Source of the DNA: Escherichia coli
GTDB taxonomy: Bacteria > Pseudomonadota > Gammaproteobacteria > Enterobacterales > Enterobacteriaceae
DNA: 64,000 nucleotides
NCBI RefSeq assembly: GCF_044324875.1
Contig: NZ_CP172185.1
Strand: one strand, 5' to 3'
The translations under genes and the position numbers were made by a program. The first letter of the stretch is position 1. Each line of letters starts with the position of its first letter. The notes beneath the pieces were generated by a model. That model saw only the letters and a list, made by a program, of their open reading frames with translations. It was not told the origin of the DNA and ran no database searches. Shown one piece after another: positions 16,791 through 17,117 of this stretch.

Positions 16791-17117
16791 TCAGGGACGT
16801 GATGGCGTAAAGATAAATTGTCTCTTCACTCCCTGACGGGGACTATTCTTTTCAAATCTCCATTTCGCCATGGCCTTCACCACTTCATCACGAAACAAAT
16901 TATGAGGCTCTGAGCGGAGAAAAACGATCCGTGTCACAGTCCCGTCAGCACCAATATCGAACTTAACCTCAACCAGCCCCTTGATATAATTTGCTGCAGC
17001 ATATTCCGGATATCGTGGATACACCGTCACTAATTGCCGGGGCTCATCAGCTTTTTGCTGCGAGCATCCCACTGCCAGGGCAGATAACAGAAAAAGTAGT
17101 GAAAGGCGTCTTTTCAT
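16791..17117 (-). CDS. Lipoprotein with TonB C-terminal domain (lipobox LAVGC)
   Basis: ORF 16791..17171, start at internal ATG (MKRRLSLLFLLSALAVGC...); YPEYAAANYIKGLVEVKFDIGADGTVTRIVFLRSEPHNLFRDEVVKAMAKWRFE aligns with E. coli TonB residues ~160-235 as I recall them. Confidence 0.65.
   Translation of the reverse strand: MKRRLSLLFLLSALAVGCSQQKADEPRQLVTVYPRYPEYAAANYIKGLVEVKFDIGADGTVTRIVFLRSEPHNLFRDEVVKAMAKWRFEKNSPRQGVKRQFIFTPSRP

Follow-up and report, generated by a model that had tools for sequence, protein, structure and literature searches.

A prophage in the stretch of Escherichia coli DNA analysed here (64,000 nucleotides (nt) of contig NZ_CP172185.1, assembly GCF_044324875.1; the whole stretch is called the window below) carries a gene for a predicted lipoprotein precursor of 108 amino acids (aa) that consists, behind its signal peptide and a short tether, of a C-terminal domain of TonB (TonB_C, the TonB head). 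The pattern of substitutions between its alleles indicates a real gene under purifying selection, its relatives form a family that has been recognised newly here, and we propose tentatively that the product is a decoy which would compete for the partners of TonB. The gene as such is already present in databases by similarity annotation: RefSeq lists the same 108-aa product as 'TonB family protein' (WP_029400675.1), the copy in phage 21 (96% aa identity) is annotated as 'TonB C-terminal domain protein' and the one in an O157 prophage as 'tonB-like membrane protein'. A description of its function was not found, and full-text literature searching returned neither a functional study of the TonB_C lipoprotein nor a description of a phage-encoded TonB-head decoy.

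A TonB head behind a lipobox

The N-terminus of the precursor reads MKRR-LSLLFLLSALAV-G-C18 and thus shows a basic n-region, a hydrophobic core and the lipobox L-A-V-G-C18, the Cys of which is invariant in 15 of 15 members of the family alignment. The residue at the +2 position is Ser in the window protein and S, T or A, never Asp, in all 18 lipoprotein members examined; Ser at this position predicts sorting of the TonB_C lipoprotein to the outer membrane by the Lol pathway. The precursor is a lipoprotein of the Sec/Lsp type, and its mature residues 19–108 (90 residues) are the equivalent of TonB 151–235, with a tether of 7 residues between Cys18 and the domain. The TonB_C match lies far beyond chance, as Pfam PF03544 (TonB_C) matches residues 33–102 with an E value of 3.2e-13, TIGR01352 scores 48.6 bits and is above its curated cut-off of 27.1, and a phmmer search against the PDB aligned residues 24–103 without any gap to residues 151–230 of the E. 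coli TonB C-terminal domain (1u07, E 2.3e-14). Models for full-length TonB equivalogs (NCBIfam PRK10819) reached 46–67 bits and stayed below their cut-offs of 265–448. Since they match via their last ~80 profile positions only, the protein possesses neither a membrane anchor nor a Pro-rich spacer. Judged from its sequence, nothing in the TonB_C lipoprotein is able to couple to ExbB/ExbD, and no exbBD-like open reading frame (ORF) was found in the gene neighbourhood. A preliminary description of this DNA had claimed just such a protein, namely a 108-aa lipoprotein with a LAVGC lipobox, aligned over the full length of its mature region with TonB's C-terminal domain and free of anchor and proline-rich spacer, and the profile searches as well as the structure prediction bear this out.

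The AlphaFold2 model of the mature part has a predicted local distance difference test score (pLDDT) above 90 across the domain, which spans residues ~26–105 (equivalent to TonB 153–232) and shows the same order of helices and strands as a control model of E. coli TonB; it has the fold of the solved TonB heads, in which two helices accompany a three-stranded sheet. A Foldseek search gave a template modelling (TM) score of 0.95 and a root mean square deviation (rmsd) of 1.0 Å for 2gsk_B, the chain of TonB in its complex with BtuB, a TM score of 0.93 for 2grx_C, the corresponding chain of the FhuA-TonB complex, and one of 0.88 for 1u07. With the numbering taken from the gap-free phmmer alignment (residue n corresponds to TonB n+127), residues 26–103 are positions 1–78 of the 81-residue TonB fragment that was crystallised on BtuB. 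The YP motif is kept (Y36-P37 for TonB Y163-P164) and so are the aromatic residues F53, F75, W86, F88 and F103, which stand for TonB F180, F202, W213, Y215 (Phe in the window protein) and F230. Strand β4, which residues 236–239 form in the TonB control model, is absent, because the chain ends where TonB has T235. Compared with the E. coli TonB C-terminal domain (~150–239; 1u07, 1xx3, 2gsk_B, 2grx_C) the likeness therefore comprises the fold (TM 0.85–0.95, rmsd ~1 Å, 37–40% identity), the YP motif, the aromatic residues and the β3 edge that pairs with TonB boxes. In contrast, the window protein has no anchor, no Pro-rich rod and no β4, and its lipid anchor is predicted to sit in the opposite membrane, for which reason the head would not be energised by ExbBD.

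The gene was found in 1615 of 5426 complete E. coli genomes (about 30%), with at least 80% of its length aligned in 1611 of these 1615. Besides phage 21 the same gene is present in ev017, Perceval and several ECOR prophages; an allele of 70% identity (E. coli group 2) occurs in Stx1a phages and JLK-2012, and a relative of 41% identity in a Klebsiella phage. Between group 1, to which the copies of the window and of phage 21 belong together with 32 of 32 group 1 loci from IMG/VR, and group 2 the rate of synonymous substitution (dS) is ~1.5 and the ratio of the nonsynonymous rate to it (dN/dS) is 0.12, in the signal peptide and the mature part alike, and length, lipobox and domain have been preserved. 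With only 37–40% identity to E. coli TonB the gene is a paralogue of considerable age, and a recent origin as a fragment does not fit.

Family, phage slot and regulation

We performed an exhaustive HMMER search over 1.8 billion representative sequences, from which a set of 105–135-aa proteins emerged that match from the first residue onwards. Nearly all of them have the lipobox Cys with S, T or A at +2, followed by a tether of 7–14 residues to the first conserved Pro. According to the cluster names they belong to Salmonella, Raoultella, Gibbsiella, Rahnella, Erwinia/Pantoea and Klebsiella and are all called 'TonB family protein' only. A narrow peptide-pattern scan of genome contigs yielded 4 loci and carries little information on taxonomic spread, for which the cluster names are more useful. 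These sequence comparisons place the window protein in a newly recognised family from Enterobacterales, whose members are lipoproteins with TonB_C as their sole domain.

The gene is located on the late-gene strand, after Rz/Rz1 and before cos. At its right end phage 21 has 700 nt that can be aligned with the window from 16727 to 16025 at 97% identity, so that cos can be placed ~770 bp past the gene, and the preliminary description was also right in putting it between lysis cassette and cos. The same post-lysis slot recurs in at least six phage backbones that are unrelated, with three of them from E. coli and one from the Klebsiella phage. In a Salmonella HK97-like prophage the order is DUF2514/Rz, TonB_C, HNH, TerS, TerL, and a lambdoid backbone of Rahnella shows Q, holins, GH19 endolysin, Rz, a small ORF, TonB_C, DUF1441 and GpA terminase. 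In Pantoea the order is holin, lysozyme, Rz, S-pyocin/DNase, immunity gene, TonB_C and portal. Among 80 IMG/VR loci a same-strand Rz lies upstream in 63 of the 66 informative ones and a terminase downstream in 53 of 54. Members of the family are also found on chromosomes, beside ahpCF/GST in Gibbsiella and beside spy-like and yagU-like genes in Raoultella, and one adjoins the plasmid partition genes ParM/StbB.

Two of these loci have further features. In the Pantoea agglomerans prophage (~1278–4324) the S-type pyocin/colicin DNase between Rz and the TonB_C homologue has 769 aa and is accompanied by its immunity gene; the homologue itself has a Sec signal and no lipobox. Phage 21 (OL657228) carries a complete sitABCD iron/manganese ABC transporter at 12968–16417, downstream of the tail-fibre genes, so that this classic phage has two accessory loci related to iron, namely sit and the gene of the TonB_C lipoprotein.

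The regions upstream of the homologues were scored against the 19-mer Fur consensus GATAATGATAATCATTATC, using 1000 shuffles per upstream region. The Salmonella prophage homologue is preceded by TGATAATTATTATCA, a perfect 7-1-7 palindrome, the Raoultella homologue by TGAGAATTATTATCA and homologue P0039 by TGATAACGATTATCA, and similar sites were detected in Gibbsiella, Erwinia/Pantoea, Shimwellia and in front of homologue P0049. Seven independent lineages outside E. coli score 14–15/19, a value reached by 0–14 of the 1000 shuffles, and as background 6 of 278 ORF upstream regions from the same loci and the window, TonB_C genes included, reach 14/19. The sites are situated 10–17 nt 5' of the start codon in six lineages and 44 nt in one, and they cover sequences that resemble promoters and have TGnTAG(T/A)AT as extended -10 element. 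In the homologue of Klebsiella phage ST13-OXA48phi12.4 (3423–3791) the annotated start (MLIYIHGIGVF...) falls inside a Fur-like box; from the family alignment, translation seems rather to begin at an internal ATG, at 3456 (MKKGF...). By these predicted Fur boxes, which most relatives carry, the family is tied to the iron/TonB regulon.

E. coli group 2 shows a degenerate palindrome (AGAATAAGaCTTATTCT, 13/19) at this position, where it covers ATGACC-16-TG-TAGAAT. Compared with group 2, the right half of this palindrome has been removed by a 13-nt deletion from group 1, in which the -10 element is CAGAAT, the -35 element and the spacer are poor and the best Fur match amounts to 9–10/19. For the window and phage 21 copies no Fur box was found, as the best score of 10/19 was equalled or exceeded by 912 of 1000 shuffles. 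The window allele has thus probably lost autonomous iron-controlled expression.

A candidate decoy for TonB partners and its alternatives

Which role could be assigned to a TonB head that is predicted to sit in the outer membrane? The answer that we prefer, tentatively and at somewhat less than an even chance, is a decoy that competes for the partners of TonB and lowers TonB-dependent import. TonB boxes bind to β3 of the head by β-augmentation, in which secondary structure matters more than side chains, and TonB-dependent colicins carry TonB boxes too (PMC11658791). An overexpressed periplasmic TonB domain is reported to inhibit iron import by TonB-dependent transporters (Howard et al. 2001) and a TonB-box peptide inhibits colicin killing and phi80 infection (Tuckman 1992), both as cited in PMC9841981. 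Because of the β3 pairing and the inhibition by a periplasmic TonB domain, competitive capture appears to be the best-supported mechanism. The lipid-anchored head would be positioned under the outer membrane, by the periplasmic face of TonB-dependent transporters, and its exposed β3 edge could engage partners of the TonB head by β-strand augmentation. As partners one might think of the TonB boxes that are present in transporters with bound ligand and in group B colicins. Possibly the head of TonB, for which dimerisation by way of the same sheet is known, would be captured instead. Such complexes could not be energised; they would lead nowhere and would be in competition with TonB itself, of which a cell has a few hundred molecules. 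The expected outcome would be a partial TonB-minus phenotype with tolerance to phages of the T1/phi80 type, group B colicins and siderophore-microcins, paid for with some siderophore and B12 uptake. In most relatives the protein would be made from its own Fur-repressed promoter when the transporters are derepressed, and in the window copy and phage 21, where operator and promoter have decayed, expression would be late and Q-antiterminated.

The engineered TonB fragments of Howard et al. (2001, J Bacteriol 183:5885), as far as they are described in PMC9841981, resemble the window protein in being anchorless periplasmic TonB heads, and inhibitory activity is reported for them; they are artificial, soluble and overexpressed, whereas the window gene is natural, phage-carried and apparently selected, and encodes a lipoprotein. 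In favour of the decoy count the identity and fold of the domain with its conserved TonB features, the short tether and the non-Asp +2 residue of the family, the wide occurrence in E. coli genomes, the fixed post-spanin slot, the signature of purifying selection and the Fur boxes predicted for the relatives. Furthermore, the carrier phages have tail tips of the lambda-J type (in phage 21 the C-terminus of the tail tip is lambda-J-like) and we saw no cor gene, so that their own adsorption need not suffer when TonB routes are blocked. We saw no sign that the carriers use a TonB-dependent receptor.

Several points weigh against the decoy. Two TonB residues are not conserved, namely Q160, for which the window protein has Y and the other allele group of E. 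coli has L, and R166, for which the window protein has Y. When the mature domain was fused to the BtuB Ton box with a 20-residue GS linker the domain was folded (pLDDT >90) and the peptide remained undocked (pLDDT <50), and the same was seen for domain and peptide in the fusion with the genuine E. coli TonB C-terminal domain as control, so that the model speaks neither for nor against binding. No convincing sigma-70 promoter was found for the window copy, the best candidate being CTGGAA-15-CAGAAT; with the operator lost and no convincing promoter of its own, late expression is probable rather than expression in the lysogen, most likely via read-through of Q-antiterminated late transcription. 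Expression in the lysogen, which classical superinfection exclusion would need, is therefore doubtful for the window allele, and late expression fits lysogen-based exclusion poorly. A high copy number would be needed to saturate tens of thousands of transporters. The Fur control of the relatives means that they would be made exactly when iron uptake is needed, which complicates simple exclusion, and for relatives on chromosomes that are induced through Fur, a mere block of iron uptake would do harm. Such relatives argue for some benefit of the family under iron starvation, which could be the shielding of derepressed receptors or equally well a helper role. PADLOC matched 0 families in its search for defence systems. 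In BFVD no TonB-head-like viral structure was found at E≤0.001. A wider idea, that these lipoproteins are a receptor-agnostic exclusion or tolerance device of Enterobacterales temperate phages which shuts the common TonB step and was ancestrally timed by Fur, is possible, but in our view rather less likely than not.

A helper of TonB-dependent uptake, i.e. an iron-starvation-induced partner from a lysogenic-conversion gene that holds or pre-extends TonB boxes or docks the TonB head, is in our opinion unlikely. The Fur boxes of the seven non-E. coli lineages, among them chromosomal genes of Raoultella, Gibbsiella and Erwinia/Pantoea, would suit such a partner, as would the sitABCD genes of phage 21, but without coupling to ExbBD a head has no means of energising transport, free TonB heads have been inhibitory in the one experimental precedent, and the Fur box has been lost from the window copy.

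FusB, a homologue of TonB, has its anchor in the inner membrane. It shares the TonB_C fold with the window protein (9hi3, 7zc8; 38% identity in the structural alignment), its C-terminal domain binds ferredoxin, and it shows that a TonB head can evolve new protein ligands. The complex of this domain with ferredoxin (9hi3) was among the close structural matches, and it is conceivable, if improbable, that the head in the window has been retargeted to another ligand, perhaps a protein that is imported or resides in the periplasm, for example to the TonB box of a colicin or pyocin, with a role in bacteriocin tolerance or trafficking and not at the transporters. The TonB boxes of TonB-dependent colicins (PMC11658791) and the Pantoea homologue that follows S-type pyocin/DNase and immunity genes in the same slot would agree with this; the pyocin linkage is however confined to a single homologue cluster whose member is not a lipoprotein, and no bacteriocin gene lies beside the window copy.

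The position downstream of Rz/Rz1 on the late strand, with the Rz neighbour conserved in IMG/VR as given above, and late transcription as the most likely source of expression of the window copy could also point to a lysis accessory, a spanin-like outer-membrane protein for the end of the lytic cycle. Indeed the protein matches PHROG 1267, an 'Rz-like spanin' of the lysis category, over its full length (E 2e-40). We rejected this label, as a separate and complete Rz/Rz1 pair is present upstream and the 90 mature residues form a globular TonB head, in contrast to a short proline-rich o-spanin; members with Fur boxes on chromosomes and one beside plasmid partition genes also speak against it, and we regard a function in lysis as very improbable. 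The label is best explained as an annotation carried over from neighbouring genes. In the records of VT2-Sakai and AU5Stx1 'Rz-like spanin' features are shown in the corresponding region, and the phrog_1267 label looks like an error that is liable to propagate through phage genome annotation.

That the gene is a decaying, functionless fragment of a captured tonB is hardly credible. The old annotations as 'partial tonB-like membrane protein' and the decayed promoter and operator of group 1 alleles would fit it, but it is already contradicted by dN/dS 0.12 at dS ~1.5 with length, lipobox and domain intact, and the 1611 of 1615 E. coli matches that cover at least 80% of the gene and the age of the paralogue also speak against it. 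The probability left over by the decoy and these four alternatives falls to a role of some other kind.

If the decoy is correct, its nearest functional counterparts are found among other phage lipoproteins. Cor (phi80, N15, HK022) and Llp (T5) are small phage outer-membrane lipoproteins as well and act from the periplasmic side on the TonB-dependent transporter FhuA (PMC11436027). They are specific for FhuA and protect against phages with the same receptor, whereas the window protein, which differs from them in fold, would have the common TonB step as its target, whatever the receptor. No relatedness to them was detectable, the distinction being based on Pfam, which finds TonB_C only, and not on a direct comparison. 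Bor/Iss (lambda, phage 21) is an outer-membrane lipoprotein moron that occupies the same Rz-to-cos interval as the TonB_C gene, with which it coexists in phage 21 and in 12 of 80 IMG/VR loci, but it belongs to another family and is encoded on the opposite strand. Bor is expressed in lysogens and confers serum resistance. For the regulation stx1AB offers a parallel, a Fur-regulated late-region moron of lambdoid phage that is transcribed from an iron-repressed promoter of its own. The alleles of Salmonella and of E. coli group 2 are arranged in the same way, although the product of stx1AB is a toxin and not an envelope protein, and the window allele lacks the operator.

Surroundings of the gene and significance

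The coordinates of the gene and of the features around it are collected in Table 1.

Table 1. The TonB_C lipoprotein gene and neighbouring features in the window.
Feature	Position	Strand	Remarks
TonB_C lipoprotein precursor, coding sequence, 108 aa	16791..17117 (stop codon included)	(-)	ORF call, profile matches, dN/dS
Start and stop codon of the TonB_C lipoprotein gene	ATG at 17117; stop 16791-16793	(-)	
Shine-Dalgarno sequence AGGA	17124..17127	(-)	6 nt 5' of ATG
Predicted signal peptide and lipobox MKRRLSLLFLLSALAVGC	17064..17117	(-)	read from sequence
Lipobox Cys18 codon	17064-17066	(-)	+2 residue Ser
TonB_C domain, residues 33-102	16812..17021	(-)	by Pfam
Remnant TGTCAGAATAAGAC	17132..17145	(-)	remnant of extended -10 (TGnTAGAAT in family) and left half of Fur-like palindrome
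Stable hairpin	16762..16790	(-)	right after stop codon, no U tract; free energy (dG) -16.7 kcal/mol, z -3.1
9-bp GC-rich hairpin, then U-rich stretch	16650..16699	(-)	possible bidirectional terminator
Endolysin	19099-19632	(-)	upstream, intact ORF
Rz i-spanin	18635..19117	(-)	upstream; genuine spanin pair with Rz1
Rz1 o-spanin	18697-18882	(-)	embedded in Rz
cos	~16025		from alignment to phage 21 right end
Terminase small subunit	15291..15800	(-)	downstream
Terminase, further ORF	13391-15376		downstream

Three small PHROG families without known function are encoded upstream as well, on the same strand. The GC-rich hairpin is placed between the TonB_C gene and a small convergent ORF at 16522-16668 (+), which encodes 48 aa, is a member of phrog_4843 and converges on the hairpin that both genes share. 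Another ORF at 16109-16426 (+), between the TonB_C gene and cos, encodes 105 aa without PHROG match and resembles, if read from an internal Met (MKIRNILAISLATSSFSCLA...), a signal peptide with a Cys-rich tail. Upstream of the gene a non-coding block of ~190 nt (17236-17434, (-)) is more conserved between the allele groups than the coding sequence; it is present in 398 phage records (among them lambda-like, 434 and Stx phages) compared with 15 that encode the TonB_C protein. A regulatory RNA was considered and rejected for this block, as it is without a match in Rfam and does not fold more stably than expected (z -0.7), and it is probably a joint of the lambdoid mosaic or an unrecognised element of the late region. 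In the closest genome match, a prophage of E. coli TUM9803, the endolysin is annotated as frameshifted, while that of the window is intact, and the late region upstream is broken by insertion sequence (IS) elements and a group II intron. Most other strains have an HNH endonuclease beside the terminase, and there the first ~200 nt of the query (window 15800–16000) are unaligned.

If the decoy is true, a prophage gene present in about 30% of complete E. coli genomes modulates the central TonB step, which governs the uptake of siderophores, B12, siderophore-antibiotic conjugates, colicins, microcins and several phages. Effects might then be expected on host range in phage therapy, on bacteriocin competition in the iron-poor inflamed gut and on the susceptibility to 'Trojan horse' antibiotics, and the TonB field would gain a natural dominant-negative head. 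Also in the case of a helper, a Fur-controlled TonB head in the outer membrane would be a new component of a system that has been studied for a long time.

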